Shown: positions 1 to 15,936, numbered from the stretch's first letter. The stretch is 64,000 bases of DNA from Alphaproteobacteria bacterium (GCA_965246755.1 OZ251979.1:649089-713088), one strand, 5' to 3'. Program-made: numbers and translations. The notes: generated by a model from the sequence alone, not told the origin.

Positions 1-389
1 CGCGCATATTGGGCGCGACCTATGGGCGTTTGCAATCGGAACTGCTGACGCCATTGATGTTGCGCGCGATCAGCATTTTGCAGCGCCGTGGTGAAATCCC
101 GCTGCTGCCGATTGACGGGCGCATGATTGAACTGGATTACCGTTCGCCATTGGCCATGGCGCAAGGCCAGCGCGATGTGCAGAATATTTTGCAGTGGTTG
201 CAAAGCGCGGCGACGCTGAACACCGGCGCGCAGGTCATCGATCAAACCGCAGTGGTGCGTTGGCTCGGCGAGATGTTCGGTGTGCCATCAAACTTGATGA
301 AAATGACCGCACTGCCGGATGCCGCCGCACAGGAAATCAACAGCCTTGCGCAACTGCTAACCGCAGGAGGCCAGCATGCGCAAGCGTGA
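1..389 (+). CDS. Phage portal (head-to-tail connector) protein, C-terminal fragment; 5' end lies outside the window
   Basis: ORF open to window start; position immediately upstream of scaffold-like, capsid, tail-tube and terminase genes in T7-like order; translational overlap with next ORF. Confidence 0.35.
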   Translation, partial: RILGATYGRLQSELLTPLMLRAISILQRRGEIPLLPIDGRMIELDYRSPLAMAQGQRDVQNILQWLQSAATLNTGAQVIDQTAVVRWLGEMFGVPSNLMKMTALPDAAAQEINSLAQLLTAGGQHAQA

Positions 390-663
390 TACCGGTACCG
401 CCGGTTGGCAGTGGTTTGATAAAACCACACTGGATACTCCGGTGGCGGACGACACTGCGCGGCTTTTCACGCAATGTTTCAGCACTCCCGCCGGGACGCG
501 TGTCTTGGACCATCTCAACCAGACCATTTTGTCGCGCAGCCTGCCGCCCACCAGCAGCGCCACAGAATTATTTTACCACGAAGGCCAGCGCGCGACGGTC
601 GCGCTGATCAACACGCTTGTGTCGCGCGGCAAAATCAATCCCACACCCAACCAAGGACAATAA
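376..663 (+). CDS. Hypothetical phage protein (95 aa)
   Basis: ATG overlaps stop of upstream ORF (coupled); co-directional in the structural module; no recognisable motifs. Confidence 0.3.
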   Translation: MRKRDTGTAGWQWFDKTTLDTPVADDTARLFTQCFSTPAGTRVLDHLNQTILSRSLPPTSSATELFYHEGQRATVALINTLVSRGKINPTPNQGQ

Positions 664-666
664 GAC

Positions 667-1389
667 ATGGAACTGAATTTACTGGTCGACAACAACAACG
701 CCAAACCCGCCGCCGGGCGCCCCGCGACTGACCGTCCCGCCGGTGTACCGGGAAAATTCTGGGATGCCGCGCAGGGCACCATCCGCACTGACGCGCTGCT
801 CAAATCCTATCAGGAATTGGAACGCAAATTATCACGCAGCGTTGATCCCGCCAATAAACCGCACATGATGAAAGTGCTGGGTGTGCCGGAGACGGCGGAT
901 GGTTACAACATCAAATGCCCGCACGGTTTTTTTGAAGCCGATGCCAGCATCAACCATATTTTGCATGACAAAAGCTTTACCGAAGACCAGGCACAGACGG
1001 TCTATGATCTCGCCGCCGAACGGTTGGTGCCAATGATTTTGGACATCGCCCAGGAATTCAGCGCCGAACATGAACAGGATCGCCTCATTGAACAATTTGG
1101 CGGTGATGCGCAGTGGCGCGAGATCAGCCGTCAGCTGCTGATGTGGGCCAAGGCGCATCTGCCGGAGGAGGCGGTCAAGGGTTTATCGACCACCTATCAG
1201 GGCGTCATGGCGCTGTACAAAATGATGCAGAATGACGAACCGACGTCGCTCAAGCCGGACGGCACCGCGCGCGGCGCCGATGACATCAATGACATGGTCA
1301 AAGACCCGCGTTATTGGCAGCAAAAGGACCCTGCCTATATTGCGGAGGTCACCGCGGCCTTTAAACGCCGGTATAACGGACAATTATAG
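667..1389 (+). CDS. Putative capsid assembly (scaffolding) protein
   Basis: 240-aa acidic/helical protein between portal and capsid genes, the gp9 position in T7-like layout; assignment by synteny only. Confidence 0.3.
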   Translation: MELNLLVDNNNAKPAAGRPATDRPAGVPGKFWDAAQGTIRTDALLKSYQELERKLSRSVDPANKPHMMKVLGVPETADGYNIKCPHGFFEADASINHILHDKSFTEDQAQTVYDLAAERLVPMILDIAQEFSAEHEQDRLIEQFGGDAQWREISRQLLMWAKAHLPEEAVKGLSTTYQGVMALYKMMQNDEPTSLKPDGTARGADDINDMVKDPRYWQQKDPAYIAEVTAAFKRRYNGQL

Positions 1390-1423
1390 ATAACAGGCAT
1401 GGGGCGCGAGGCATGAAAGTGTT

Positions 1424-3118
1424 TTGCGCCTCGCTTTTTTAAACCGCACATTCACACAAAGATTTTTCACTATGCTTTTTGACAGTTTTACAACCAAGAC
1501 AAAACCCGACCCGTTTGGGCGTTTGGGTTTTGGCGATACGGTGACAGACGATGCCGATGGCGGCGATGGCTTTATTGGCGCGCTGCGCGACACTTGGCCA
1601 GATACAAAAGCTATATTTTCTGGTGATGACACCTATGTCAGCAAAAAGCAACAGCAGGATAATGACCCTTATCTGATTTCAGAATTCGCAACGTCAACGG
1701 GCAATACCGGCAGCAGTGACGACGGCTGCTTTGGCAGCGCGCCGCGCAAACAAGCCAAATCAAAAAGCAATGGCGGCCTGTTCGATTATATCGTCAATGT
1801 CATCGACGATAGTTTCGGTTATGAGGTGGGGCGCAACAAAACCAACCGCCGGCGCGATGTAGCGCCGGTGGAAACGCTGCTGCATGGCAATGGCTATTAC
1901 AATCTGGATAAAACCGCCGGCCCTACTGGCTATTTCAGCAATGGCCTCGAGGATGCCATTGAAACTTTTCAAGCGGATAAAGGCCTCAAAAAAGACGGTT
2001 ATTTGGAACCCAAAGGCGACACCATTACTAGTCTTATCGGCAGCTTAAGCCAGGCTGCCGCGCGCGGCGTTGGCAGCCTGTTTAGTTCGGTCTTCAGCGG
2101 CTTAGGCAGTGCCGCCGATGCGGTGGGGGATACAGTATCCAGTGCAGCCCGAGACGTCACTAATGCGGGCGGCAGCCTCCTGCACGGCCTGGGCGATGAT
2201 ATCAGCGACGCTGCGGACAGCATTGACAGCACCATCAGCGGCTGGTTTGGTGAGGATAAAACTAACGATAATAAAGTTATCACAACCGATGGCGCCATTA
2301 CGCGCAGCAGCGCGCAAGCAATTGATTTACCGCCGCTTGGGGCCGTGCAAAAGAACAAAGCTGCAGCGACAGAGCCAGTGGATTTCGGCCAGCTTGTGCA
2401 AAGCATAGCGGATGAAACCAGCCAAAATAATTTTGATTTGTCATCTGGAAAGAACAACAGTTTTGATAATCTTATTAGGAAAGTTGCTGATGAAGGCAAG
2501 CAAACTATTTTAGTTGGCGTCGATGATAAGGAAATTAAAGATCTCGTGATTAAACATGAAAAAGATGTACCTTATTTATACAAAGATAGTCTAGGCAACA
2601 TTACAGTTGGTACGGGAATTATGTTGCCAAGTGTGCAAGAAGCTCAAAAACTGCCTTTTGAAATAAAACAGGAAGATGGAACGGTACGTCCAGCGACTAG
2701 TAATGAAATAAAAACTGTGTTTGATAAAGTAAAAGCTACTACGGGTAATGTTGATACAGATTATCAAACCAAAAAATTAGGATTACCTGATCTTCAATTA
2801 AATCCCACTGCAAGTGATAAAAAACTACATGAAAAGCTTGAACAGTCTGTTTTAGAATTGCAAAAGAAATTCCCTGATTTTGACAGTTATCCTGAATCGG
2901 CTAAAATTGCTTTGATGGATATGGAATATAACATGGGTAGCAAGTTCCAAGAACATCGCATTGACGCTCAAACAGGAAAAGATAAGGGTTGGCCAGACTT
3001 CTGGAAAGCAGTCAAAGAACAGGATTGGGACACAGCTGCTGAACAATCGCATCGCTGGCAGGTCGGCACGGATAGAAACAGTGATACCGCAACACGTTTT
3101 AGAAAGGCAAAACGCTAG
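1424..3118 (+). CDS. Virion-associated peptidoglycan hydrolase: N-terminal PG-binding domain, Gly/Ser-rich linker, C-terminal T4-lysozyme-like (GH24) domain
   Basis: PG_binding_1-like segment (LEDAIETFQADKGLKKDGYLEPKGDTITSL). C-terminal ~170 aa align to T4 lysozyme: YLYKDSLGNITVGTGIML vs IYKDTEGYYTIGIGHLL; ALMDMEYNMG vs ALINMVFQMG; WDTAAEQSHRWQ vs WDEAAVNLAKSRWYNQ. Sharp GC drop after ~nt 2400. True start may be Met17 (nt 1472). Confidence 0.6.
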   Translation: MRLAFLNRTFTQRFFTMLFDSFTTKTKPDPFGRLGFGDTVTDDADGGDGFIGALRDTWPDTKAIFSGDDTYVSKKQQQDNDPYLISEFATSTGNTGSSDDGCFGSAPRKQAKSKSNGGLFDYIVNVIDDSFGYEVGRNKTNRRRDVAPVETLLHGNGYYNLDKTAGPTGYFSNGLEDAIETFQADKGLKKDGYLEPKGDTITSLIGSLSQAAARGVGSLFSSVFSGLGSAADAVGDTVSSAARDVTNAGGSLLHGLGDDISDAADSIDSTISGWFGEDKTNDNKVITTDGAITRSSAQAIDLPPLGAVQKNKAAATEPVDFGQLVQSIADETSQNNFDLSSGKNNSFDNLIRKVADEGKQTILVGVDDKEIKDLVIKHEKDVPYLYKDSLGNITVGTGIMLPSVQEAQKLPFEIKQEDGTVRPATSNEIKTVFDKVKATTGNVDTDYQTKKLGLPDLQLNPTASDKKLHEKLEQSVLELQKKFPDFDSYPESAKIALMDMEYNMGSKFQEHRIDAQTGKDKGWPDFWKAVKEQDWDTAAEQSHRWQVGTDRNSDTATRFRKAKR

Positions 3119-3621
3119 CGCGAAAAAGTTGATCCTCTGCGCTCTGCTTCGGCGCCGCATCGGCTATCTGGCCCTATTTTTGTCCAGAGCCTTGCGGCAT
3201 CAAAACTTTCCCATTCTTCGGTTAACGCATCATGACAGCCAGGCAAATCCTTTGTTATTTCCATCAGATATAATATTTTGTTATCTGGATTTTTTTCAAT
3301 GGTATAATGAACATACTCGTAAAAATTTTTGTCTTTATATTTTTCTTTGGTTAATACATATATTTCATTATCGTTGCTAACATGTATGATTTTATATTCT
3401 TTAGTCACATATATCTTTGAATTATTTTTATGGTGACAACATAAAAATTTTGGGTTTTCTATGTAAATAAGCCGACCTTCCTTAGTGAATTGTATTCCTA
3501 CATCATCCATCGCGCGACTATAAGGATGCCATAATCCTAAGAATCCTGCGGGAAGACTTTCTTTTGCCATGACGGGCCTGCAGAAATATAAAAACACTAA
3601 AATGGTCAGCATTATTTTCAT
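3115..3621 (-). CDS. Secreted protein of unknown function, CC-HH motif family (paralog A)
   Basis: N-terminal signal peptide (MKIMLTILVFLYFCRPVMA); shares LGLWxPxSR...NPxFLCCHH(K/R) motifs with neighbouring ORF; ~35% GC island. Confidence 0.45.
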   Translation of the reverse strand: MKIMLTILVFLYFCRPVMAKESLPAGFLGLWHPYSRAMDDVGIQFTKEGRLIYIENPKFLCCHHKNNSKIYVTKEYKIIHVSNDNEIYVLTKEKYKDKNFYEYVHYTIEKNPDNKILYLMEITKDLPGCHDALTEEWESFDAARLWTKIGPDSRCGAEAERRGSTFSR

Positions 3622-3814
3622 GGCAAAAATATCATAAGTGCCAGCTTTTATCTATGCAATATAATATTTGTAGCGGTAAGTTTAATGAAGATAAATGGCC
3701 CGGTTTCTTTGAGGCTGTACAAGAAGGGGGACTGGGATACTGCAGCTTTAGAATCTCACCGCAAAGATGTACAGCCGTCTAGGAATCAAAATATTTATGA
3801 CTTACTATCCAATA

Positions 3815-4321
3815 TCATGGAGTAATCCTTGCATAAGTTTCAATATTTCCTTCTTTACAATTTTTACAATCAGCTACGCTATCTAGCCATTTTGTAAAAC
3901 GCTCAATATTAGGATATTCCCACTCGTTTAACGGCAATTTGTCCCAATTAAGGTGTGTTACCGATAAATTTTGATTATAAGTATAACGAGTGTTCTCTAT
4001 TTTTAATTCGATATAATGATATTCGGGCAATTCTCCCTTTTCTTGTTCTTTGACGATCAAATAAATTTGATGCGGCGGTGCTGGCACATCCAAAACTTTA
4101 AAAGCATCAGTTTGGATGACTTGAGGTTTGTCGCGATGATGGCAACATAAAAAGGCCGGATTTTGTATATGAACGATTTTGTTACCCTCTATTTTGAGGC
4201 CGATATCCAGCGAAGTCCGGCTAAGCGGTGTCCATAATCCTAAAAACTCCTGGCAATGTCTCGCTGCATAAGCCGGTAATGACAAAATTAAGAGGAGCAA
4301 AACTGTAATACGTTGGCGCAT
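3815..4321 (-). CDS. Secreted protein of unknown function, CC-HH motif family (paralog B)
   Basis: Signal peptide MRQRITVLLLLILSLPAYA (start chosen at internal Met; track ORF extends to 4363); conserved FLGLWTPLSR...NPAFLCCHHRDK; low GC. Confidence 0.45.
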   Translation of the reverse strand: MRQRITVLLLLILSLPAYAARHCQEFLGLWTPLSRTSLDIGLKIEGNKIVHIQNPAFLCCHHRDKPQVIQTDAFKVLDVPAPPHQIYLIVKEQEKGELPEYHYIELKIENTRYTYNQNLSVTHLNWDKLPLNEWEYPNIERFTKWLDSVADCKNCKEGNIETYARITP

Positions 4322-4410
4322 GGTGATCTCGGTTGTCATCGCAATATAGCTGACGTAAATCATTTGAATAGATTAAACAGGGGTTAGCAAGGTTAATGTG
4401 AATATCTAAT

Positions 4411-4866
4411 ATGAGTCCAACTATAAACCTTTTTACCATCGGTTTCGCCGGCTGGCGCGCGGCGGCGTTTTTTGCGCGGCTGCGCGATGCCGGTGTGGCC
4501 AAAGTCATCGATACGCGGCGCTGGCCGTCCACGCAGCTGTCGGGCTTTGCCAAGCAGCAAGACCTGTCGTATTTTTTGCGCGAACTGGTGCAGATTGATT
4601 ATGAGCATAATCTGCTGCTGGCGCCCACCAAGGAATTGCTGGATGACGGTAAGGCGAAACGCCTTGATTGGGATGAATATACCGGGCGTTATCTGGCGCT
4701 GCTTGCCGAACGTGACGTCGCGGCGGTGCTAAGACCCGCCAGCCTGCACAATGCCTGTTTGTTATGCACCGAACATGACGCCGCACATTGCCACCGCCGC
4801 CTGCTGGCAGAATATTTGCAACAGGCCTGGGCGGGACGATATGAAATCACCATCAGCCACTTATGA
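4411..4866 (+). CDS. DUF488 family protein
   Basis: N-terminal LFTIGFAGW...FFARLRDAGVAKVIDTRRWP pattern typical of DUF488 (YeaO-like) proteins; host-like GC inside moron island. Confidence 0.55.
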   Translation: MSPTINLFTIGFAGWRAAAFFARLRDAGVAKVIDTRRWPSTQLSGFAKQQDLSYFLRELVQIDYEHNLLLAPTKELLDDGKAKRLDWDEYTGRYLALLAERDVAAVLRPASLHNACLLCTEHDAAHCHRRLLAEYLQQAWAGRYEITISHL

Positions 4867-4883
4867 TGATTGAGGATTGCCCA

Positions 4884-5696
4884 CTACAGACCAAATTCAC
4901 TTTTCCAAGCCGCCGCCTGGTTGCGTGACAGTTTTTGCAATGAATTGGTGCCGGTTTCCGGGATTTTGATGCCCAGCGCCTGTGCGTTGGCGCGGCGTTG
5001 TGCAGCGCGGCGCATTTTGGCATTCATGGCTGGTTGGTTGGCTGGTACTGGTTTAGCAGACAATATTGCCTCACCCGAAAAATTGGTTACTGGCAATATT
5101 GACGGCAGTGCGGAAGGTACGCGAACCGCGGCGGGTGCTGCCACTTTTGATACGGCACGTTTTAAATTCGGCTCTGGTAAATCTTTATGTGATATTGCCA
5201 ATCTTAATTTTGGATAAATCTGACCTTCCATCAAATTTTTCTTATTATGTGAACCTGTTATTGCATCATCCCTAAACTGCATCGCAACGCTATCATCATA
5301 AACATAGCCGTTTTGTCGGTAGGCCGCAGCGACGCGGCTGCAAAACTCCAAATTAGCGCTGCGGTTAAGTTCACTTGTAAATTCTGGCACTGCAAAATTC
5401 AGCTTGCCGTCGTCAAAATATATGTGTGTGGAATGTTCGCCATCAGTGCGTTTAACGATGTTAATAGTATCGCCAAAATTTTGTTTTAATGAGGCAAAAA
5501 TTTTGGATCCTGGCCAGGTTTTAACAGGCTGAACCAGTGGCGGCGCGCTGGCAGCTGAGAACAACGCGTAAGCCAGCACACCTATGCCAGAACTAACGGC
5601 AATTGTTTGAGCATGCTGCACGATAGGCTGAACGATTGCGCTTAAGTGCTGCATAAATGATTGTGACAATTTATTTAATCTGGCTTGAAATATCAT
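4884..5696 (-). CDS. Hypothetical membrane-anchored protein (270 aa)
   Basis: Single N-proximal hydrophobic helix (GIGVLAYALFSAASAPP); Ala/Pro-rich C-terminus; no recognisable domain; convergent with DUF488 gene. Confidence 0.35.
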   Translation of the reverse strand: MIFQARLNKLSQSFMQHLSAIVQPIVQHAQTIAVSSGIGVLAYALFSAASAPPLVQPVKTWPGSKIFASLKQNFGDTINIVKRTDGEHSTHIYFDDGKLNFAVPEFTSELNRSANLEFCSRVAAAYRQNGYVYDDSVAMQFRDDAITGSHNKKNLMEGQIYPKLRLAISHKDLPEPNLKRAVSKVAAPAAVRVPSALPSILPVTNFSGEAILSAKPVPANQPAMNAKMRRAAQRRANAQALGIKIPETGTNSLQKLSRNQAAAWKSEFGL

Positions 5697-5776
5697 AAGG
5701 TATCCTTGGTTGAATGAATGTTATACGGTGCTTGGCGCTCAGATTTCCACTAATTTATTTACTTGCAAAAATGTTG

Positions 5777-5805
5777 TTGACATAAGGATAAAATTCCTAT
5801 ATAGT
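5777..5805 (+). promoter_or_regulatory. Consensus sigma70-type promoter (TTGACA-17 nt-TATAGT) reading toward the capsid gene
   Basis: TTGACA at 5777-5782, 17-nt spacer, TATAGT at 5800-5805, in AT-rich intergenic DNA about 315 nt upstream of capsid ATG. Confidence 0.4.
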
Positions 5806-6119
5806 ATTTCTTAACAACGGGCAAAATCCGTCTTTTAATGGTGTAAACCATTGAAAAATTGGCTGTCCTTGGGCCGTTCCGGCGGCGCGCTGCATTGACA
5901 GATGTCCACTCCACTATCGCTATTCTGTTGGCTGCTGTCCCCCGCGGCAGTCAACCCAACGCGGCGGCAGCGCGCCCAACCGGCCACCACCTATCACTTT
6001 TGGATTAACCGCGGTTTTTAAACTGCGGCCCGGCATTATCGCCTGAACCCGGCTGCACATGCCGTGCAGAGAACCGCGCGCCAGGCTTGTCCTTCACCCT
6101 TAACAAACAGGTATAGACA

Positions 6120-6938
6120 ATGTCGACCTCTATCGATCAAGCGTTTGTCAAACAATTCGAACGTGAAGTCCATGAAGCGTATCAGCGCATGGGCTCCAAA
6201 CTCCGCCCCACCGTCCGCAGCAAATCCGCTGTCGTCGGCTCATCCGCCGTCTTTCAAAAAGTAGGTGCTGGCACCGCGGCGACCAAATCGCGGCACGGTG
6301 CCGTCCCCGTCATGAATATCGACCATAACGCGGTTGAATGCATGCTGCAGGATTATTATGCCGGTGACTGGGTTGATAAACTGGATGAACTCAAAACCAA
6401 CAATGACGAACGCCAGACTATTGCCAATGCCGGTGCTTACGCCTTGGGCCGCAAGACTGATGATATGATCATCGCGGCGCTTGGGGGCAGCACCAGCTAT
6501 GCCGGTGCGAATACCGACGGTCTGACAAAGGCGAAGGTTTTGACGGCATTTCAAATGCTCGGCAACCTCGATGTGCCGGATGATGAACAACGGTATGCCG
6601 TGGTTGGCTGGCGCCAATGGTCGGATCTCCTCGCCATCGATGAATTCGTCAATGCCGATTACGTCGGTGACGATCAGATGCCGTTCAAGGGCAGTCAGGC
6701 CAAACGCTGGCTCGGCACCTTATGGATCCCACATTCGGGTCTCACCGCCACGGCCGGCGTGCGTAACTGTTTTTGGTACCACAAAACGGCGATCGGCCAT
6801 GCGTCCGGCGCCGATGTGCAAACCGATGTCAGCTGGCACGGCGACCGCGCGTCCTATTTCGTCAATAGCATGATGAGCCAGGGCGCGACATTGATCGATG
6901 CCAACGGCATCGTCACGCTGCGCTGCCTCGAATCTTAA
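6120..6938 (+). CDS. Major capsid protein (podovirus type)
   Basis: Position after scaffold-like gene and before tail-tube genes; composition and N-terminal pattern resemble T7/phiKMV-group capsid proteins; followed by a hairpin as in T7. Confidence 0.55.
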   Translation: MSTSIDQAFVKQFEREVHEAYQRMGSKLRPTVRSKSAVVGSSAVFQKVGAGTAATKSRHGAVPVMNIDHNAVECMLQDYYAGDWVDKLDELKTNNDERQTIANAGAYALGRKTDDMIIAALGGSTSYAGANTDGLTKAKVLTAFQMLGNLDVPDDEQRYAVVGWRQWSDLLAIDEFVNADYVGDDQMPFKGSQAKRWLGTLWIPHSGLTATAGVRNCFWYHKTAIGHASGADVQTDVSWHGDRASYFVNSMMSQGATLIDANGIVTLRCLES

Positions 6939-6955
6939 GCAAGGAGAACTGCAAC

Positions 6956-7228: not shown

Positions 7229-7233
7229 GGATG

Positions 7234-7307
7234 CTGGAAGCTGGAGACAGGAGGCTGGATTTTTCAGCACCTGTTTCCTTCCAGCTTCCACTTTTCAGCC
7301 TCCCGCT
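7234..7307 (+). terminator. Nested hairpin (putative terminator/attenuator) downstream of capsid genes
   Basis: 11-bp arms TGGAAGCTGGA (7235-7245) / TCCAGCTTCCA (7280-7290), inner ACAGG/CCTGT pair, alternative GGAGGCTG/CAGCCTCC pairing, followed by T-rich tract; mirrors terminator placement after gene 10 in T7. Confidence 0.35.
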
Positions 7308-7896: not shown

Positions 7897-9794
7897 TGCC
7901 CGTCATGCGCACTGTCAAAACCAATTTCACCGCGGGCGAAGTCACGCCGCGCCTGATCGGCCGCGGCGATCTGCGCGCCTATGAAAATGGCGCCCGCGCG
8001 CTGCATAACCTGTTTGTCTATGCCACCGGCGGCGTCACGCGCCGCGCGGGGCTGGAATATATCGATACCGCGGCGGGGGACGGGCGCCTGGCCAGTTTTG
8101 AATTTAATACCGAACAAAATTATCTGTTTGTCTTTACGCATTTGCAGCTAGCCATTTATCTGGACGGCGCGCTGGCCACCACGCTCGTGACGCCGTGGAC
8201 GCTGGCGCAGTTATCGCAACTCAATTGGGCACAGAGCGCCGATACATTTTTGGTGTGTCATCCGGATGTGGCGCCGGTCACCATTACACGCAGCGCCAGC
8301 GGCTGGCAGTTGGCCAATTGGCAGTTTGCCAGCGATCCTAACGGCGTGACCTATCAACCTTATTATAAATTTGCTGACAGCGCGGTCACCTTGACGCCAT
8401 CGGCCACGACGGGTGCAATTACCATCGTCGCATCAGCGGATTTTTTTGTGACCGGACATGCCAATACGATTTTTCGTATCAATGGCAAACAAATTATGGT
8501 CACCGCGATTTTATCGCCCACGGTGGCCAGTGCCACAGTGTTGGAAACACTGACAGCCCTTACCGCCACCACGAGCTGGCAGGAACAGAGTTTCAGCGCG
8601 GTGCGCGGCTGGCCGATTTCGGTGGTGTTCCATCAGGATCGCCTGGTCATCGGCGGCGCGCGCGATCTGCCCAACCGGTTGTGGCTGTCGCAATCGGGGC
8701 GGTTGTGGAATTTCAATCTCGCCACCGGCTTGGATGATGAAGCGATCGAATTCGGCATTTTGTCAGACCAGGTCAATGCCATCCGCGCGGTATTCTCGGG
8801 CCGTCATTTGCAGGTCTTTACCTCGGGCGCGGAATGGATGGTGACGGGAACGCCACTGACGCCAGCCTCTATCCAGCTGAACCGGCAGACCCGGGTCGGA
8901 TCAATCGCCACGCGCACGGTGGCGCCGGTCGATGTCGATGGTGCGACATTGTTTGCGGCGCGCAGCGGTCATGAGTTGCGCGAATTTTTATTCAACGACG
9001 GGGAACAGGCGTATGATGCCAACGATCTGTCGCTGATCGCGAGCCATATCGTCGTCGACCCGGTCTCAATTGCATATGATAAATTGCGCCGCTTGCTGTT
9101 TATGGTGCGCGCCGACGGCAGCTTTGCCACTTTAACGCTGTATCGCGCGGAAACTGTCACCGCCTGGACGCAGCACAGCACGGATGGTTTTGTCAAAGCT
9201 GTCACAGTGGTGGGCGATAATGTTTATGCGCTGACCAATCGTAACGGCGCTTATTTTATTGAACAGTTTGCCGATGGCGTACCGCTGGATGCGGCGCTGT
9301 CCGGCACCGCGCTGATGCCCACGACGGTATGGGGCGGCCTGGCGCATCTTAATGGGCGTACGGTCGATATCATCGCCGATGGCGTGGTGCAGCCAGCGCA
9401 AACTGTCGTGGCGGGACATGTTACTTTAAGCGAAGCCGCCATGACGGTCGCCGCCGGGCTGCCGTTTACGCATCGCATTGAACCGATGCCGCCCAACAGT
9501 TCCGGCACGGATGGTGCCGGGCGCACCGTGCGGCTGGTCGAAATCATATTGCGTGTCGCCAATACCGCGGCGCTGCGATTGGATACCGGCGCGGGCTTGC
9601 GTGACGTCGCGTTGCGGCCGGCGATCAATGCAGAATTTGTCGATGCCCCGCCACCGGCGATTGATGGCGATATCGCGGTGCGCGGCCGCGGCTGGCGGCG
9701 GGATTTGTCCAAACCCCTGTGGGTTATCGAACAAGATACGCCCTTACCCTTTACGCTGCTGTCGGTTGTGACGGCGGTGCATGTCAATCTTTAA
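7893..9794 (+). CDS. Tail tubular protein B (gp12-like nozzle) candidate
   Basis: 633-aa beta-rich protein overlapping the stop of tube A gene (ATGA); synteny with T7-like tail-tube pair; no direct motif match. Confidence 0.45.
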   Translation: MMPVMRTVKTNFTAGEVTPRLIGRGDLRAYENGARALHNLFVYATGGVTRRAGLEYIDTAAGDGRLASFEFNTEQNYLFVFTHLQLAIYLDGALATTLVTPWTLAQLSQLNWAQSADTFLVCHPDVAPVTITRSASGWQLANWQFASDPNGVTYQPYYKFADSAVTLTPSATTGAITIVASADFFVTGHANTIFRINGKQIMVTAILSPTVASATVLETLTALTATTSWQEQSFSAVRGWPISVVFHQDRLVIGGARDLPNRLWLSQSGRLWNFNLATGLDDEAIEFGILSDQVNAIRAVFSGRHLQVFTSGAEWMVTGTPLTPASIQLNRQTRVGSIATRTVAPVDVDGATLFAARSGHELREFLFNDGEQAYDANDLSLIASHIVVDPVSIAYDKLRRLLFMVRADGSFATLTLYRAETVTAWTQHSTDGFVKAVTVVGDNVYALTNRNGAYFIEQFADGVPLDAALSGTALMPTTVWGGLAHLNGRTVDIIADGVVQPAQTVVAGHVTLSEAAMTVAAGLPFTHRIEPMPPNSSGTDGAGRTVRLVEIILRVANTAALRLDTGAGLRDVALRPAINAEFVDAPPPAIDGDIAVRGRGWRRDLSKPLWVIEQDTPLPFTLLSVVTAVHVNL

Positions 9795-9813
9795 GCCTAT
9801 CCAAAGGAACCCT

Positions 9814-10299
9814 ATGTCAGGAATAACCTCCGTTGTCGCACCGCTGTTTGAAACGGCGGCCCAAGGCCTGGTGCAACATGCCGCGCGCAGCAGCCTGCAA
9901 AGCCAGTTTGACCGCGCCGCCAACCAGCAAAAAGCGGCCAGCGACGCGCTCCAGGAACAGCAGGCTGCCGATAACGCCGCCTTGCAAAAAAGCGCCTTGC
10001 AATCAAAGGCTGACGCTGACAGCGACACACGGCTGCGGCAATTGCGCGCCGGGCTTGCCAAAGCCCGCGCACATTTTGCCGCGCAGGGCATCGGCCCTGA
10101 TGACGGCAGCGCCGCTAATCTGCAGGAAACGGCATTTGCGAACAGTGCTGACGAACAGCAGTTTGCCGATGATGATTTAAGTAACCGCATGGCGCAGCTG
10201 GATCAAACGCTGGGCAATATTCAGGCGCGTAACCTGTTACAGCGCAGCCAGACGAAAAATAACCAGCTGCTGGGTTATCTGCATGATGCTGTTTTCTAG
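9814..10299 (+). CDS. Small internal virion-like protein (Ala/Gln-rich, coiled-coil)
   Basis: Start chosen at ATG 9814 with AAGGAA SD (track ORF begins 9781); occupies the gp13/gp14 position between tail tube and fibre genes. Confidence 0.3.
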   Translation: MSGITSVVAPLFETAAQGLVQHAARSSLQSQFDRAANQQKAASDALQEQQAADNAALQKSALQSKADADSDTRLRQLRAGLAKARAHFAAQGIGPDDGSAANLQETAFANSADEQQFADDDLSNRMAQLDQTLGNIQARNLLQRSQTKNNQLLGYLHDAVF

Positions 10300-10340
10300 C
10301 AGATTAGCTGATGAGCAGATGAGTAAGTGAACGAAGCGCA

Positions 10341-10368
10341 TATAGCCTCCCCACAAAGGGGAGACTAT
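10341..10368. repeat. Solo copy of small palindromic repeat (ATAGCCTCCCC-ACAAA-GGGGAGACTAT)
   Basis: Same CCTCCCC-ACAA-GGGGAGG palindrome occurs at the right end of the DUF559 element (about 17722-17745). Confidence 0.4.
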
Positions 10369-10425
10369 CCGCGCTTGATGTCTAATTTTTTGCGCGTCAC
10401 GCAATTAACACTAAGAAAGAAAACT

Positions 10426-12453
10426 ATGACCGATCATATCACCATTCCGGCTGTCATGCCGCGCATTCAATATACCGCAAACGGCAGCCAGACTGTTTAC
10501 GCCTATCCGTTTCCGATTTTCAGCACCAATGATCTTACGATCAGTTTTGACAATGTCGTGCAATATGCCGGATACATCATCACGGGTGCCGGCGCATCCA
10601 GCGGCGGTGCAGTGACATTCGCCCCAGCGCCACCGAACAATGTTATCGTCACGCTGGAACGCCGCCTCGCCATCCAGCGCAGCACCGATTTCCAGGAAGG
10701 CGGCGATTTTTCGGCGCGCAGCCTTAATAATGAATTTGACTATACGGTCGCCGCCTTGCAACAGGTGCAAAGCGACACTGCCGGCATGCTGCGTTTCGAC
10801 CGGTCGGAATTGCCCAATACGGTGACATTGCCCAGCCGCGCGTTGCGCGCCAATAAAATTTTGGGCTTTGATGGCAGTGGGAACCCTAAAAGCTACGATG
10901 CCGGGGCGGCGCCGTCGCCCGCGCAATTTGCGCCGACCGGTACGGGCGCCATGTCGCGCGCGGTCGCTGACCGTTTAAATGAAATCGTCTCGGTCAAGGA
11001 TTTTGGCGCCATCGGCAATGGCATTGCCGATGATACGCTGCCCATTCAAAAGGCGCTGAATGCGCATGCCAATGTGTTCGTGCCGCCAGGCACCTTTCGT
11101 ACCACCGCACCATTGATGGTGGGCCAAGGCCAGCAGTTATACGGCGCGGGATTCAGCAGTATTATCCACGGTGCCGATAACACTTTCAATCTGATCCAGA
11201 TGACGGCCGACTATGCCCGCGTGAGTTGCCTCAAACTGGAAAACGGCAATGCCGGCATCAAATTATTCGGTTTTAATGGCGTGTGTGTGCAAAACAGCGT
11301 CGCCGATGTCAGCATCTGGGATGCCAATTACGGACTGTTGCTGGATGGCTATAACGACACGAATTATCCCTGTTACTGGAACAACTTTCACCGCGTTTTA
11401 ATTGCGCGCCCGAAAATCCACGGCGTGTGGCTGACCAAAAGCGGCGCTGGCGATACGCCAAATGCCAACAAATTCCATGCGGTGCGCGTTTATTCCCTGG
11501 GCGCCAATATCACCGGCAGCGGTTTTTATGTGGAATACGGCCGTTACAATAATTCCTTTGTGGATTGCGAAGCCAATATCCACACCACCGGTCACAGCTG
11601 TTTTCGTCTGGGTGCCAATACGGAAAAAACCCTGTTTATCAATCCTTATGCCGAGGCGCTAGCCGCGTTGCCGAATTTTTACCTGGGCGCGGGTTCGGTT
11701 GAAACCAATATCATCAATCTATTATCCGCCGCGGCGGGTCCGGCGATTCAGGATTTATCCGGCGGCAATTACACGACCCTGAATAGCGGTTATCCCATTA
11801 AAAACCGGTTGAGTAAAACACTGGCCACTGATCTTACGGTCCAGCAATTGCGGTATGACACCAAGTTTATTGATGGCGTCTCGACGCTGAATGTTGATTT
11901 AACCACCTCCTGTTATCTGGTCAGCGCCTTTGGCGGCAATGTGACTGTTAATTTGCCAAATGCAGCCACTGCCGGCGGCGCCTCTGTCACCATCAAAAAA
12001 ACCGATCTCAGCGGTAATAACGTCATCATTCAGGAAACCGGCGGTGATGGCCCTGACAATCGCACCGTGGTGCTGGGCAGCCGCTATGATTACGTCACAT
12101 TGGTGTGCAACGGCGCAACCTGGTGGATTACCTCGGCCACGCAAAATCCCGCTAATACTTATTTTTATGACGGCCTGTCATTGGTGCAGCCGGACCTGTC
12201 GCGCCAAGTGTATCTGGTCAGCGCCTACAGCGGCGTGACCGAATGCCGGTTGCCGCCGGCCAATGCGGCCAATGCTGCCGGGCGCATCGTGACCATCAAG
12301 AAAACCGATGTCAGCACGAACAAGGTTAATGTCAGCGTGTCCGGCGGCGGTTACATTGATGGCGCCAGCTTTTTTACGCTGAACGTTATTTATGACGCGG
12401 TAACGGTTATTTCCAACGGTGCCAACTGGTTTGTCATCAGCAAGAAATCCTAA
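10426..12453 (+). CDS. Tail fibre/tailspike protein: T7 gp17-like N-terminal tail-attachment domain, pectate-lyase-type beta-helix, tandem duplicated C-terminal modules
   Basis: N-terminus aligns with T7 gp17 N-domain (IQYTANGSQTVYAYPFPIF... vs LTYQLDGSNRDFNIPFEYL...; LERRLAIQRSTDFQEGGDFSARSLN vs LRRVTSTTDRLVDFTDGSILRAYDLN). VKDFGAIGNGIADDTLPIQKAL is a pectate_lyase_3 signature. Two ~80-aa repeats begin CYLVSAFGG / VYLVSAYSG. Confidence 0.65.
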   Translation: MTDHITIPAVMPRIQYTANGSQTVYAYPFPIFSTNDLTISFDNVVQYAGYIITGAGASSGGAVTFAPAPPNNVIVTLERRLAIQRSTDFQEGGDFSARSLNNEFDYTVAALQQVQSDTAGMLRFDRSELPNTVTLPSRALRANKILGFDGSGNPKSYDAGAAPSPAQFAPTGTGAMSRAVADRLNEIVSVKDFGAIGNGIADDTLPIQKALNAHANVFVPPGTFRTTAPLMVGQGQQLYGAGFSSIIHGADNTFNLIQMTADYARVSCLKLENGNAGIKLFGFNGVCVQNSVADVSIWDANYGLLLDGYNDTNYPCYWNNFHRVLIARPKIHGVWLTKSGAGDTPNANKFHAVRVYSLGANITGSGFYVEYGRYNNSFVDCEANIHTTGHSCFRLGANTEKTLFINPYAEALAALPNFYLGAGSVETNIINLLSAAAGPAIQDLSGGNYTTLNSGYPIKNRLSKTLATDLTVQQLRYDTKFIDGVSTLNVDLTTSCYLVSAFGGNVTVNLPNAATAGGASVTIKKTDLSGNNVIIQETGGDGPDNRTVVLGSRYDYVTLVCNGATWWITSATQNPANTYFYDGLSLVQPDLSRQVYLVSAYSGVTECRLPPANAANAAGRIVTIKKTDVSTNKVNVSVSGGGYIDGASFFTLNVIYDAVTVISNGANWFVISKKS

Positions 12454-12469
12454 GCACTGAGATTGAAAC

Positions 12470-12775
12470 ATGTATCACGATATCACCGCGGCGCGCGCCG
12501 AGGTGCGGCTGCTGTTGCCGCAATTTCTACATCGCGTCGTACAATCTTATCAGGATTACCTGACCATGCCGGGTGCGCCGACGGCGGACGATCCTAAACA
12601 ATATGGCACCTATCATACGGGCGCCAAAACCGCATTGACGCATATTGAATTGTTGCTGCGCATGCATAAAAGTTTTGATGCCGGGGAGGATGTGACTGAA
12701 GATCACACCGCGGAACTGGCGGCGGCTCAGGCCGAACTTGATGGCTATGCATCAGTTGAGGCCGGTGATGCATGA
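12470..12775 (+). CDS. Small terminase subunit candidate (gp18 position)
   Basis: 101-aa acidic protein immediately upstream of and overlapping (ATGA) the large terminase gene, as T7 gene 18. Confidence 0.35.
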   Translation: MYHDITAARAEVRLLLPQFLHRVVQSYQDYLTMPGAPTADDPKQYGTYHTGAKTALTHIELLLRMHKSFDAGEDVTEDHTAELAAAQAELDGYASVEAGDA

Positions 12776-14277
12776 CATCTGTAGCATCATCGGGGCCAGC
12801 GTCGTCAGGGCCAGCCGGGTTTCCGCTGTTTCTCATTTTGTGGAACCGGCGGCAAAATTTAATGACGCCTGCGCATCAGCTGCGCATCGCCAACTGGCTG
12901 CACGACCAATGGCAGCGCGGCGAACGGCAGCTGTTGTTGCTGGCATTCCGCAACTCCGGCAAATCTACGCTGGTCGGGCTGTTTTGTGCGTGGCTGTTGC
13001 ACCAAAATCCTGATTTGCGGATTTTGGTAGTGAGCGCTGAACAGCTGCTGGCGGAAAAAATGCTGCGCCAGACGCGCACAATTATTGAAAGCCATCCGCT
13101 GACAGGCGGGCTTAAACCACGCGGCGCCACGCAATGGAGCGCGTTACAATTTACTGTTACGCGTCAGGCGGTGATGCGCGATCCGTCGATGCTGGCGCGC
13201 GGATTGGGCGCCAATATCACCGGCGCGCGGGCGGATGTGATTATCTGCGACGATGTCGAAGTACCGACAACGTGCCACAACCCGCAACAACGTGCGGCGT
13301 TACGCCAAGCATTAGGCGAGCTGGATTTTATCCTGACCCCAGGCGGCGCGCAGCTGTATATCGGCACGCCGCACAGTTATGACACGATTTATGCGGTTGA
13401 ACCGTGCCGCGGCGCGGGTGACAGCGTGCCGTTTCTACAAGGCTATCAGCGGTTGGCGATCCCGCTGCTGGATAAGGCCGGCCGCAGCGCCTGGCCGGAG
13501 CGGTTCGATGCGGCTGCCATCGCGCAATTACGCCGCAGCAGCGGGCCGCTGAAGTTCAACAGCCAGATGCAGCTGGAGGCGGTCAATAGCAGGGCGGCGC
13601 GTTTGGACCCGGCGCTATTGAAAAAATATGATGCGGAGCTGCGCTATGAAGAGGCCCAAGGCAGCGCGCAGTTATGGCTGGGCACCACGCAGTTGGTTGC
13701 GGCCAGCTGTTGGTGGGACCCGGCCTTTTCCGGCGCGCGTGATGGTAGCGTGGTGGCACTGGTGTTTGTGGATGGTGAAGGGGTTTATTACCTGCACCGC
13801 ATCGCTTATTTGAAAACCGATAGGCACAGTGCGGATGATGAGGCGACGCAGCAATGCGAGGCGGTGGCCAGTTTGCTGGACAGTTATTTTGTGCCGGTCA
13901 TCACGATTGAAACCAACGGCATCGGTAAGTTTTTACCGGCGCGGCTGCGCCAAGTGCTGGCGGCGCGCAAAATTCCCTGCGCGGTGCGCGAGGCACATGC
14001 GTCGCAGAATAAGGCACAACGTATTTTGGCGGCACTGGATGCACCACTCGCCGCGCAGGCGGTGTACGCCCATAAATCATTGTGGCAAACGTCGTTCATC
14101 ACCGAAATGCGCGACTGGCAACCCGCCAAAGCCAACAGTGCCGATGACGGTTTGGATGCAGTCGCCGGCGCGATTAGCGCAACGCCGATGCGTTTGAAAG
14201 GCATGGCGCAGGCAGCGGTGCGGGTGCGGTGGGGTAGCGTGGCGGGTTGGCGCGGCAAAACAGAGTTTGAGGTTTAA
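12772..14277 (+). CDS. Terminase large subunit, T7 gp19 family
   Basis: Clear alignment to T7 gp19: LLLAFRNSGKSTLVGLFCAWLLHQNPDLRILVVSAEQ vs [38 protein letters not shown] (Walker A); GARADVIICDDVEVP vs GSRADIIIADDVEIP (Walker B); YIGTPHSYDTIY vs YLGTPQTEMTLY; N-terminal FPLFLILW...AHQLRIANWL matches gp19 N-terminus. Confidence 0.85.
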   Translation: MTSVASSGPASSGPAGFPLFLILWNRRQNLMTPAHQLRIANWLHDQWQRGERQLLLLAFRNSGKSTLVGLFCAWLLHQNPDLRILVVSAEQLLAEKMLRQTRTIIESHPLTGGLKPRGATQWSALQFTVTRQAVMRDPSMLARGLGANITGARADVIICDDVEVPTTCHNPQQRAALRQALGELDFILTPGGAQLYIGTPHSYDTIYAVEPCRGAGDSVPFLQGYQRLAIPLLDKAGRSAWPERFDAAAIAQLRRSSGPLKFNSQMQLEAVNSRAARLDPALLKKYDAELRYEEAQGSAQLWLGTTQLVAASCWWDPAFSGARDGSVVALVFVDGEGVYYLHRIAYLKTDRHSADDEATQQCEAVASLLDSYFVPVITIETNGIGKFLPARLRQVLAARKIPCAVREAHASQNKAQRILAALDAPLAAQAVYAHKSLWQTSFITEMRDWQPAKANSADDGLDAVAGAISATPMRLKGMAQAAVRVRWGSVAGWRGKTEFEV

Positions 14278-14281
14278 CAGA

Positions 14282-14330
14282 AGCGAGACGCGAGAAGCGA
14301 GAAGCGAGATTTATGTCTCGCTGCTCGCCT
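14282..14330 (+). terminator. Tandem (A)GCGAGA heptamers ending in hairpin GCGAGA-TTTATG-TCTCGC downstream of terminase gene
   Basis: Four direct GCGAGA(A) copies then inverted TCTCGC; lies between terminase stop (14277) and next gene. Confidence 0.3.
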
Positions 14331-14363
14331 CTTGTTTCACGTTTCTCCTGAAAGGAGAAAACA

Positions 14364-14696
14364 ATGGAACCATTTGGAATTGATTTGCCGTGGTGGATCT
14401 CGGCGGTGGAAGCGCCGACCATTTCGGCATTGTTTATGTTCGTGATTAAAAGCCGCCGCGAGGCCGAACGTAAAGTCGCGCTGCTGGAAGGATCTATCAC
14501 GCATTTGCGCGGCAATATTATGGAACTGGTCAGCGCCTTTAAACTAGAAGTTGCCAAATCCTATGCCTCAACACAATCACTGCGGGAAGTGGAAGGGCGC
14601 CTGGTCGCGCATCTGAACCGCATCGAAGCCAAACTGGATGTGGAGTCGTATCGCGCACGCGCGGTGACGGCGAGTTTTGATTTTTTGAAGGATTAG
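14364..14696 (+). CDS. Membrane-anchored coiled-coil protein (holin/antiholin or i-spanin-like)
   Basis: One N-terminal TM (WWISAVEAPTISALFMFVI) then heptad-rich region; precedes cell-wall hydrolase gene; RBS sits in 3' arm of palindrome TTTCTCCT-GAA-AGGAGAAA (14342-14360). Confidence 0.35.
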   Translation: MEPFGIDLPWWISAVEAPTISALFMFVIKSRREAERKVALLEGSITHLRGNIMELVSAFKLEVAKSYASTQSLREVEGRLVAHLNRIEAKLDVESYRARAVTASFDFLKD

Positions 14697-14699
14697 CAG

Positions 14700-15269
14700 G
14701 TGACGTTGTTGTTATCCCGTTCCCTTGAGGGAGAGGATGCCCCTCATCCGGCTTATCGGCCACCTTCTCCTTCAAAGGAGAAAGACATTCCCAATTATGA
14801 GTTTAAAATGTCCAATATTATCTGTTTTCAATCCGCCGCCGCGGCACTCACTAGCCGCGCGGTGGATGTGCTGGCGCGCACCATTTGGGGCGAAGCGCGC
14901 AGTGACGGCCAAGCCGGGATGGAGGCGGTGGCTTGTGTCGTGAACAACCGTGTCGCCTATGCCCAGTCGCGCGTGTCGCGCAAATTTTGGTGGGGCAACG
15001 ATATTGTATCCGTCTGCCAGATGCAAAAACAGTTCAGCTGCTGGAACCGCACCGATCCGAATTATCAAAAATTACTAACAGTCACAGTGGCGGACCCGGC
15101 GTTTTACATGGCGGTACGCATCGCCAAATGGGCGGTGTGCAGCGCGCTCCAAGATATAACCAAAGGCGCCACGCATTATCATACGCGCAATATTCTACCG
15201 CAATGGGCAGTGGGCGCAGCACCGTTATGTGTGGTGGGGCATCATGTGTTTTATCGGATTACGGGATGA
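14700..15269 (+). CDS. Cell-wall hydrolase, SleB/CwlJ family (putative endolysin)
   Basis: LARTIWGEARSDGQAGMEAVACVVNNRV matches Hydrolase_2 (SleB) signature; GTG start per track with GAAGGA SD, alternative ATG at 14808. Confidence 0.6.
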   Translation: MTLLLSRSLEGEDAPHPAYRPPSPSKEKDIPNYEFKMSNIICFQSAAAALTSRAVDVLARTIWGEARSDGQAGMEAVACVVNNRVAYAQSRVSRKFWWGNDIVSVCQMQKQFSCWNRTDPNYQKLLTVTVADPAFYMAVRIAKWAVCSALQDITKGATHYHTRNILPQWAVGAAPLCVVGHHVFYRITG

Positions 15270-15368
15270 CAGGAACTGGGAACTGGGAATTAGGATAAGA
15301 TTTTCAATCTACTAGTACCTAGTTCTTTTTATTGATTTTTATAGCACCAATGAAGGATAATTGCCATC

Positions 15369-15902
15369 ATGTTACCAGCACTCCTCGCGTCCATCGGTCT
15401 GCCATTATTGGTTAAAGCCGTACAGGAAGGTTTGAATAAAATTGACAGTCCAGTGGCCAAGGCTGCGTCAAACGCTTTGGATGGTGTGAATACCGCAATC
15501 ACAACCGGCGCGATCCCGCTCGACCAGGTCAAAGAAGCCAACCGGCATCTGGAAGCGATCGCGACATTGGACAGTAGCGAGAACATGACCGCACTTACGC
15601 AGATTAATGAATCGCTGCGTACGGAAGTTGCGTCAGAAGATCCTTATGTCAGGCGGATGCGCCCGACCTTTGGCTATATTATGGCGGCAACCTGGGGCGC
15701 GCAAATGTTCGCGATCGCCTATACGATTGTGACCGATCCAAAATCCGCCGGCGCGGTTATGGACGGCATGTCGTCACTGTCCGCGATCTGGTCGGTTGGC
15801 CTCGCCGTGCTGGGCATTTATGTTTATAAGCGCAGCAATGAAAAAAGCGCACTGTCGCAACCGGGTAAAATAATTACCAAGGATGATATCATTTGGAACT
15901 GA
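15369..15902 (+). CDS. Putative holin-like membrane protein (3 predicted TM segments)
   Basis: Hydrophobic segments at N-terminus, ~aa 100-122 and ~aa 135-155; last gene of the phage-like block before host nhaP-like gene; AT-rich upstream region. Confidence 0.3.
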   Translation: MLPALLASIGLPLLVKAVQEGLNKIDSPVAKAASNALDGVNTAITTGAIPLDQVKEANRHLEAIATLDSSENMTALTQINESLRTEVASEDPYVRRMRPTFGYIMAATWGAQMFAIAYTIVTDPKSAGAVMDGMSSLSAIWSVGLAVLGIYVYKRSNEKSALSQPGKIITKDDIIWN

Positions 15903-15936
15903 TTGCGCTTTCCGGTAATCGCGCTATAGTTGCAGC

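Follow-up and report, generated by a model that had tools for sequence, protein, structure and literature searches.

The RNA polymerase (RNAP)-less podoviruses of the T7 supergroup, namely the HTVC010P/Hodr pelagiphages, the Methylophilales phage MEP301 and the Yersinia phages YeP4-6, are autonomous phages of 34–37 kb which carry replication/recombination genes and two internal virion proteins of ~500–1250 aa, and the temperate YeP5 encodes an integrase, a repressor, a primase, a helicase and a DNA polymerase. In T7 itself gp14 forms a conduit through the outer membrane, and the passage across periplasm and inner membrane is made by gp15 and gp16. RcGTA delivers its DNA to the periplasm, with uptake via competence homologues of the recipient. 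To our knowledge only a handful of gene transfer agent (GTA) lineages are known and no alphaproteobacterial one derives from a podovirus. Here we describe a podovirus-type particle locus at positions 1–15,930 of a 64,000-nt stretch of DNA (the window, which is the whole stretch analyzed) from an Alphaproteobacteria bacterium (GCA_965246755.1, OZ251979.1:649089-713088).

We conclude, with a probability of about 0.62, that the locus is nearly all of a chromosomally fixed particle locus derived from HTVC010P/Hodr-type phages and, judging by its genes, a candidate GTA-like 'viriform' rather than a prophage. The initial annotation of this DNA had offered two possibilities, a domesticated locus for making particles and one half, the right, of a T7-like prophage that is intact. 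It is the former that comparison strongly supports: in relatives the locus is self-contained and syntenic, it co-diverges with the host under purifying selection, and its large ejection proteins have been lost. The relatives were collected with the portal fragment, which gave 385 matches among species-representative (GTDB) genomes, and the best 80 of the 385 were compared. A scan of metagenomes gave no match to the scaffold protein and capsid matches of 76% identity at best. This copy begins ~3 kb to the left of the window, and statements on the left boundary are taken from relatives at 50–76% aa identity. Gene families were assigned by Pfam, PHROG, NCBIfam, PDB profile and tblastn comparison of open reading frames (ORFs). 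Promoter and terminator sites come from a consensus scan and their activity and function are putative.

Gene content of the locus compared with known systems

ORF listing and family searches revealed a podovirus late module in which all main element genes are on the plus strand and run in a single direction. The block of portal, scaffold, capsid, tubes A and B, fibre, small and large terminase subunits (terS, terL) and lysis genes named in the initial annotation was recovered as follows.

3–389, plus strand: C-terminal ~128 aa of the portal, the gene truncated by the window start (PF12236 Head-tail_con, 1.7e-23; phrog_332)
376–663, plus strand: conserved 95-aa protein of family c11 (tblastn queries: c11 proteins of 24 related loci; highest identity 40%, E 2.5e-16)
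667–1389, plus strand: scaffolding (capsid assembly) protein, 240 aa (PF05396 Phage_T7_Capsid, 1.1e-7)
1400–1433, plus strand: terminator-like hairpin with 15-bp stem and T run, directly 3' of the scaffold stop
5777–5805, plus strand: putative sigma70-type promoter-like site, TTGACA-17-TATAGT, 315 nt 5' of the capsid ATG
6120–6938, plus strand: major capsid protein, 272 aa (PF19821, 1.4e-86; phrog_3437, 6e-72)
6956–7228, plus strand: small head/tail-associated protein, 90 aa (phrog_18004, 5.9e-19), kept 3' of the capsid gene in 49 loci
7327–7896, plus strand: tail tubular protein A (adaptor/gatekeeper), 189 aa (phrog_394, 1e-43; 54–62% identity to relatives)
7893–9794, plus strand: tail tubular protein B (nozzle), 633 aa (phrog_376, 7e-139; PDB 8ck1 'Tail Nozzle', 2.9e-49)
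9814–10299, plus strand: small internal-virion protein p172, 161 aa from the homologue-aligned ATG (profile match to a phage small protein)
10426–12453, plus strand: tail fibre/tailspike (gp17-type N domain phrog_1640, 2.4e-29; beta-helix PF12708, 4.4e-11)
12470–12775, plus strand: terS, 101 aa, by position and family (phrog_31793, 5e-9), overlapping the terL start
12772–14277, plus strand: terL, 501 aa (phrog_38, 2e-87)
14364–14696, plus strand: 110-aa lysis-cassette protein with N-terminal transmembrane (TM) segment and coiled coil (phrog_29007, 2.9e-22)
14700–15269, plus strand: endolysin, SleB-type cell wall hydrolase (PF07486 Hydrolase_2, 3.9e-14; phrog_938 endolysin)
15369–15902, plus strand: holin with three TM segments, the last gene of the element (PF11351 GTA_holin_3TM, 2.2e-12)
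15937–17169: host Na+/H+ exchanger gene, starting 35 nt past the holin, the housekeeping antiporter which the block had been said to abut

The portal fragment was 50–64% identical to the portals of the best 80 relatives, and scaffold homologues were present in 75 of the compared loci. The capsid showed 61–76% identity to chromosomal relatives and 51% to that of the cultured Pelagibacter phage Hodr (34.2 kb), and its gene is preceded by a site which, as had been claimed, agrees with the sigma70 consensus (11/12 positions). Tube B matched features annotated as tail tubular protein B in pelagiphages and MEP301. The tailspike is a right-handed beta-helix of pectate-lyase/epimerase-like type (PDB mannuronan epimerase match, 2.5e-5) whose N domain is common to the MEP301 tail fibre and three fibre genes of Magnetospirillum magneticum AMB-1. 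Homologues of terS sit 5' of terL in relatives, and terL, which matched 2,792 phage records, is ~30% identical to 'DNA packaging protein B' of T7-like phages; its T7-type RNaseH-like nuclease domain (PF22530) scored 26.1 bits, slightly under the 27-bit cut-off. The 110-aa gene, kept between terL and endolysin across relatives, possibly encodes a spanin or antiholin. The holin, of a family which we take to have been first defined for RcGTA release, is also the last gene in AMB-1, Skermanella pratensis and the related loci L085 and L169. The loci of AMB-1 and S. pratensis lie at ~4.67–4.69 Mb of AP007255 and at ~4.61–4.63 Mb of CP030265, and Micavibrio aeruginosavorus is a further carrier. The conserved window genes were full length when aligned with their homologues (capsid 1–272, tube A 1–189, tube B 1–632, fibre 34–706, terL 20–501). 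No prohead protease or tape-measure gene was found in the window block, where structural genes match podovirus families only.

The HTVC010P/Hodr, MEP301 and YeP phages have homologues of the portal, scaffold, capsid (51%, Hodr), tubes A and B (30–36%), fibre N domain and terL, and agree with the element in the order portal, scaffold, capsid, tube A, tube B, small internal protein; neither of their two large internal virion proteins is found in the element. With T7 the element shares the portal (PF12236), scaffold (PF05396), terminase nuclease domain, fibre attachment domain and late-gene order, but its 272-aa capsid belongs to another Pfam family (PF19821), gp15 and gp16 are missing, and it is neither lytic nor autonomous. 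The description 'T7-like' given in the initial annotation holds for the T7-supergroup structural module in the broad sense (PF12236, PF05396, phrog_394, phrog_376, phrog_1640 and phrog_38 are all present), but not for the lineage, which is nearest to HTVC010P/Hodr/YeP5-type podoviruses and not to T7 itself. The single-subunit RNAP of Autographiviridae sensu stricto was not found in the upstream DNA of relatives, and only a small internal-virion homologue is present from the gp14/gp15/gp16 core.

RcGTA and the Rhodogtaviriformidae are alike in being a chromosomal, vertically inherited set of head, tail, terminase and lysis genes under purifying selection, with no replication or integration genes and with a PF11351 holin. 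They differ in having a siphovirus-like HK97 head with prohead protease and CtrA/GafA control, whereas the element points to an unrelated viral ancestor, a podovirus, and has a single locus and, in its family, an S24 repressor. No counterpart of the homologous Rhodogtaviriformidae head-tail cluster was found in the element, and the PF11351 holin is the only component in common. Chromosomal residence and vertical inheritance under purifying selection, as expected of a GTA, were both observed, and no means of self-propagation was found in the family or on the right side of this copy. FpGTA of Faecalibacterium was presented as the first podovirus-like GTA-like element, with two loci and packaging of 8.4–8.9 kb (PMC12946183, 2026); its likeness to the element is one of podovirus-like morphology as described, the comparison being of a description from Firmicutes with a set of genes. 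A full-text literature search returned no podovirus-derived GTA or domesticated podovirus locus described in Alphaproteobacteria, and a search on Micavibrio prophages and Magnetospirillum GTAs returned nothing relevant. The 10-kb particles of Azospirillum have been attributed to RcGTA-like loci.

Two other classes of particle or island were compared. A tailocin, to which the locus had also been likened, would have no capsid, portal or terminase, and here capsid, portal, scaffold, terS and terL are all conserved. Phage-inducible chromosomal islands (PICI), including the capsid-forming cf-PICI, have an integrase, a replication initiator and a partial structural set; in related loci no integrase or rep gene is associated with the element, and its head and tail set is complete.

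Internal virion proteins

As the initial annotation had stated, there is only one small gene between tube B and the fibre (9814–10299). Pfam and PHROG searches with all ORFs of the block detected no gp15/gp16-like protein, and the large post-tube-B proteins of YeP5 and MEP301 gave no tblastn match in the whole 64 kb. In free phage relatives tube B is followed by a triad of proteins of ~150–176, 508–1030 and 1084–1250 aa, which was seen in phage-type contigs (47–54% capsid identity) and in the cultured Pelagibacter phage EXVC031P Hodr (51%, 34.2 kb). The first member of the triad falls in phrog_418 ('internal virion protein') and the third in phrog_342 or phrog_6651 ('internal virion protein with endolysin domain' or 'internal virion protein').

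Comparison by hhalign of a profile of p172 and 18 chromosomal homologues with a profile of the small post-tube-B protein from 13 phage contigs gave a probability of 95% (E 2.9e-8). The sequence of p172 itself gave no direct phage, PDB or Pfam match, and PDB profile searches with the p172-family and phage small-protein profiles returned nothing significant and no solved T7 protein. By these profiles p172 is homologous to the small triad member only and is the sole internal-virion protein retained, and we use 'gp14-like' for it in the sense of its position, PHROG annotation and profile–profile match. Because p172 matches the small triad member, the chromosomal family can be said to have retained the first internal protein, while ~6 kb with the genes of the two large proteins disappeared. 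The earlier statement that there is no ejectosome core thus stands for the two large proteins, which are gone, but not for the small first internal protein.

Extra post-tube-B genes in AMB-1 and L085 were considered as gp15/gp16 substitutes and rejected, as their fibre N domains identify them as additional fibres. In a subfamily of related loci (L171, L179, L180, L182, L183 and L200) terS and terL are directly 3' of tube B, with neither p172 nor a fibre gene in line; two of these loci, L171 and L182, have a fibre-N-like segment beyond the repressor on its left, in minus-strand orientation.

Distribution, inheritance and mobility of the family

The best 80 relatives are almost all Alphaproteobacteria (Skermanella, Azospirillaceae, Magnetospirillum, Paramagnetospirillum, Caenispirillum, Telmatospirillum and many Micavibrio-like metagenome-assembled genomes), and in genomes and metagenomes alike the window gene order is kept at 50–76% aa identity. 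In these relatives the unit spans 12.5–16 kb and is bounded by an S24 repressor on the left and the holin on the right, with housekeeping genes on both sides. A typical locus begins with a minus-strand helix-turn-helix (HTH) and S24 (LexA/CI-type) repressor, one or two ~150-aa genes and an ~85-aa gene, continues with portal, ~99-aa gene, scaffold, a variable cargo slot, capsid and 90-aa gene, and ends with tube A, tube B, p172, fibre, terS, terL, 110-aa gene, endolysin and holin. The S24 repressor was present in 45 of the 57 loci with at least 7 kb of upstream DNA, where it ends ~3.0 kb left of the portal C-end; it is divergently transcribed and retains the GDSM...K Ser/Lys dyad and an AQAG cleavage-like site. 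In L081 a perfect 17-nt tandem repeat, ATCGGCTTTCGGGAAAG, occurs in two copies at 8589–8622, immediately 5' of the portal gene, and is a possible regulatory site.

To the left of the repressor, 28 Micavibrio-type loci carry mreD, PBP2, rodA, glutaredoxin, ATPase inhibitor zeta, purC, nadK and pyrE, while class I lysS is the left neighbor in ~10 other loci. The Pribosyltran gene left of the repressor was considered as ComF and rejected, NCBIfam assigning it to pyrE. For 32 further loci the five nearest upstream ORFs of each (150 ORFs, Pfam) gave housekeeping families only. Host genes also follow the holin in S. pratensis (DUF952, pyrD), L169 (CitMHS, icd, aconitase), L085 and the window, where DUF559, pnp, truB, infB, nusA, glmS, glmU, ilvD and valS lie to the right of the exchanger. 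Exchanger and pnp are separated (17225–18483, minus strand) by an ORF of 224 aa that matched no family and by a gene of DUF559 endonuclease-like type.

To compare the element with its host, pairwise identities of element genes and flanking host genes were correlated (Pearson) among the Micavibrio-type loci. Portal, capsid, tube A and tube B against purC, nadK and rodA gave 0.64–0.86, and the fast-evolving scaffold gave 0.48–0.67, with a host versus host control of 0.58–0.80. In these loci the capsid (71–99%) is conserved to the same degree as purC (61–98%). For the structural genes dN/dS was ~0.04–0.1 by the Nei-Gojobori method in nine closer pairs, rough values given that dS was ~1 and near saturation. 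The conserved window genes have a GC of 0.563 and a GC at third codon positions (GC3) of 0.646, values that do not differ from the 0.565 and 0.641 of eleven housekeeping genes. Vertical inheritance of the element, co-diverging with its host and under purifying selection, is strongly supported by these sequence comparisons.

Genes for mobility and replication were then looked for. No integrase family was found in at least two of the 32 further upstream sets (Pfam), and the relatives contained no element-associated integrase, only an unrelated island integrase (AMB-1, L003). The AMB-1 gene, 2.5 kb right of the holin, was rejected as the element's own, as the same type interrupts the L003 capsid gene and marks an unrelated island. 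This 445-aa tyrosine integrase type heads an island in L003 (12189–13520) and L083 (14088–15425); in Skermanella stibiiresistens the island interrupts the capsid gene of the element at aa 251, and in AMB-1 it is the one downstream of the holin. In the window itself no integrase occurs on the right of the element before 54 kb. Neither helicase, polymerase, primase nor recombinase was found in related loci by jackhmmer with YeP5/MEP301 seeds, and upstream of the portal operon relatives have no RNAP or replication genes but the repressor, then housekeeping genes. L081, a complete example, has no flanking direct repeats (att).

These results bear directly on the proposal that the window holds the right half of an intact temperate T7-like or HTVC010P-like prophage, whose early, replication and integration genes would lie left of the window. 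That side is indeed beyond the window, the temperate relative YeP5 carries integrase, repressor and replication genes, and the capsid is like that of 34–37 kb phages. But where the portal-to-terminase block is intact, no locus of the 50–76% family has early genes upstream of the portal operon, every free phage relative keeps the large ejection proteins which the window copy does not have, the right end adjoins host genes with no att or integrase, and the composition is fully ameliorated. Integrase with att, or a replication module of its own, as expected of a temperate prophage, was found neither in the relatives nor on the right side in the window, and we regard an intact prophage as very improbable.

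The IMG/VR relatives with capsid identity of at least 63% are all calls of ~17 kb or less, typically 'proviruses' of 12.3–14 kb, and contigs of 36–44 kb appear only at capsid identities of 62% or below. Among the IMG/VR calls there were no terminal overlaps or circular contigs, which leaves an autonomous mini-phage of ~12 kb unsupported.

A helper-dependent, cf-PICI-like satellite, with heads and tails of its own but reliant on a helper phage for proteins of replication, excision and ejection, would account for the fact that the missing functions are exactly those that a helper could supply, and a second integrated element (serine recombinase, AAA_24) is present in the window at 53.5–64 kb. 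Genes for an integrase and a replication initiator are typical of known satellites. In the related loci no integrase, primase/rep gene or att repeat is associated with the element, circular contigs were not encountered, and the constant chromosomal neighborhood across species together with the co-divergence with the host argues against mobility, so that a satellite seems to us very improbable.

The far right of the window (53181–64000) contains tRNA-Cys and tRNA-Asn, then a large serine recombinase (54386–55777), an AAA_24 ATPase (58306–59178) and a dcm methyltransferase (59175–60311); GC falls to 0.43–0.47 at 54–57 kb. The segment probably belongs to another integrated element or prophage, which continues beyond the window end and is set apart from the podovirus locus by ~38 kb of housekeeping genes. 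An Rfam scan of the window found two tRNAs and nothing else.

Cargo, proposed function and significance

The segment between scaffold and capsid, for which the initial annotation had listed a 564-aa protein (p564), contains that gene and also a 2.6-kb cargo block that had been overlooked.

1424–3118, plus strand: p564, 564-aa accessory protein (PG_binding_1, PF01471, 2.5e-9, aa 144–196), likely true start ATG 1472
3115–5696, mixed strands: cargo insertion of 2.6 kb at the scaffold/capsid junction, with three minus-strand ORFs and DUF488
3115–3621 and 3815–4363, minus strand: two paralogous secreted-looking proteins (36% identity, E 3e-18)
4411–4866, plus strand: DUF488 gene (PF04343, 7.5e-21; phrog_2450, unknown function)
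4884–5696, minus strand: 270-aa ORF (ORF call)

In p564 the PG_binding_1 domain is followed by a Gly/Ser-rich linker and a T4-lysozyme-like C-terminal domain in which the motif HEKDVPYLYKDSLGNIT, read from the sequence, has the E-x8-D-x5-T spacing of T4 lysozyme. The AlphaFold2 model of this domain was poor (pLDDT 57.5) and its top Foldseek PDB matches were all T4 lysozyme (E 0.04–0.2), which is consistent with a T4-lysozyme fold while lending it weak support. Sequence searches with p564 gave no homologues in a large protein database, one weak match among phages, and nothing significant among PDB sequences, where two matches were at chance level (E 0.25 and 0.54). Its composition is chimeric, with a GC of 0.535 in the N part and a GC of 0.374 and GC3 of 0.284 in the C part, suggesting a recent fusion at the edge of inserted DNA. 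Homologous pieces of p564 occur in few loci only and in differing positions. The patchy distribution and foreign composition rule out a conserved gp16-like lysin, and we take p564 to be cargo, which may well be a particle-associated or accessory lysin. The initial annotation had made it the only, displaced, candidate for degrading the wall; this is contradicted by the Hydrolase_2 endolysin at 14700–15269, and the role of a displaced gp16 substitute does not fit such variable, compositionally foreign cargo.

The minus-strand paralogues, of 168 and 182 aa, are AT-rich, have N-terminal hydrophobic segments and share a FLGLW...NPxFLCCHH motif. The three minus-strand cargo ORFs had no PHROG matches and the two paralogues no match to any family; GC3 was 0.33–0.42 for the minus-strand ORFs and 0.63 for DUF488, compared with 0.65 for the element overall. 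Across relatives the scaffold/capsid junction is filled by unrelated genes, often on the opposite strand: a minus-strand PilZ-domain gene in 31 Micavibrio-type loci (for example L028, 11341–11724), MCP-like and flavoprotein-like genes in Magnetospirillum, and a HigB toxin pair in S. pratensis. By composition and distribution p564 and the neighboring AT-rich genes are recently acquired cargo, at a junction which collects cargo family-wide. The PilZ gene is a host-like regulator inside the particle locus, conserved in ~31 species.

The cargo also bears on whether this copy is a non-functional prophage remnant, decaying since the insertion at the scaffold/capsid junction while the family may be functional elsewhere. 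The 4.7-kb insertion and the strong terminator-like hairpin 3' of the scaffold would fit such a history, as would the decayed copies among the relatives (L069, L168, L003 and L170). Yet all conserved window genes are full length relative to their homologues, a sigma70-like promoter stands 5' of the capsid gene, and cargo at this junction is the rule in intact relatives, so that we judge a remnant distinctly unlikely.

Several observations on the family concern its decay or rearrangement. L069 has a deletion. In L168 a remnant at 9087–12786 consists of endolysin, terS, terL and one ORF between host genes (nuoG region, tsaD, polA), and shows that the family can decay. L170 and L222 have the capsid-to-terL half flanked by host genes, with no portal or scaffold gene within 10 kb; here the element has either been split over more than one locus or lost one of its halves. 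The L170 locus (1–18602) holds the closest capsid relative (76%), and has carbonic anhydrase, ClpB, an EAL protein, rimP and nusA to its left. In L135, L136, L225 and L228 (59–61% capsid identity) terL matches in two pieces ~3.4 kb apart, possibly through an insertion or intein, and the portal gene comes after terL.

For the GTA-like particle locus that we favor, the following course of events can be proposed. The late cluster would be derepressed when the repressor cleaves itself in the RecA-type manner, or by a different signal from the host, and in this copy the terminator 3' of the scaffold and the sigma70-type promoter 5' of the capsid would bridge the cargo. Procapsids would assemble and the terminase would package chromosomal DNA in situ, as nothing excises or replicates the locus. 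Holin and endolysin would then lyse the producer and release particles, whose beta-helix tailspike would bind, and probably cleave, a surface polysaccharide. With the gp14-position protein alone, DNA may cross the outer membrane into the periplasm and be taken up by competence-type machinery of the recipient, and the periplasmic strategy of RcGTA would fit because only the first internal protein is retained. The 51% identity of the capsid to that of a 34-kb phage suggests a larger head capacity. As the head may exceed the length of the locus, headful packaging from a site near terS into adjoining host DNA is possible, in place of the small-fragment packaging of classical GTAs.

A domesticated particle might also serve a function other than gene transfer, as a PBSX-like killer or bacteriocin, in programmed lysis and release of extracellular DNA, or as a decoy or defence. 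The Bacillus element PBSX is an SOS/repressor-controlled, non-replicating particle locus that packages host DNA and lyses its producer, as we would predict for the element; it has a contractile tail needed for killing, belongs to Firmicutes and shows no homology, and the element has no contractile tail. Loss of the two large ejection proteins could mean that no DNA is delivered, SOS-type repressor control is nearer to PBSX than to RcGTA, and the tailspike and lysis cassette are conserved. On the other side, purifying selection on terS/terL, portal and scaffold would be hard to explain if the packaged DNA were irrelevant, and we know of no killing mechanism for a short non-contractile tail that has no ejection proteins. 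We consider a non-transfer function unlikely.

Certain points do weigh against a chromosomally fixed, GTA-like particle locus. Selection was estimated from dN/dS values made rough by the near saturation of dS, and some lineages show decay, with an island in the capsid gene of L003, half a locus in L170, and the losses in L069 and L168. Here a 4.7-kb insertion with a terminator-like hairpin splits scaffold from capsid and could impair expression. A head that, from its capsid relatives, may hold more DNA than the 13–16 kb locus would be unlike classical GTAs. The presence of a repressor and the absence of early genes are carried over from relatives, as the left 3 kb lies outside the window. Periplasmic delivery and competence uptake are argued purely by analogy with RcGTA, and particle formation, packaging and transfer are, in all members, predicted from genes alone.

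The wider reading, that the loci constitute an ancient, undescribed GTA family which derives from a T7-supergroup podovirus and is passed on vertically in Rhodospirillales, Micavibrio-like and other Alphaproteobacteria, with periplasm-only delivery and competence-dependent uptake convergent with RcGTA, is tentative, the gene content making it plausible enough to consider but somewhat doubtful. The 'prophage' calls of 12–13 kb made for such loci in viral databases are probably misclassifications. If our interpretation is true, a conserved, host-co-diverging, repressor-controlled podovirus particle locus would be a major new lineage of domesticated viruses, with carriers that include the tractable M. 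magneticum AMB-1, Skermanella and the predatory Micavibrio. The locus would be a natural experiment on which parts of a T7-type ejectosome are dispensable once cytoplasmic injection is not required, and the convergent evolution of GTAs would become directly testable.

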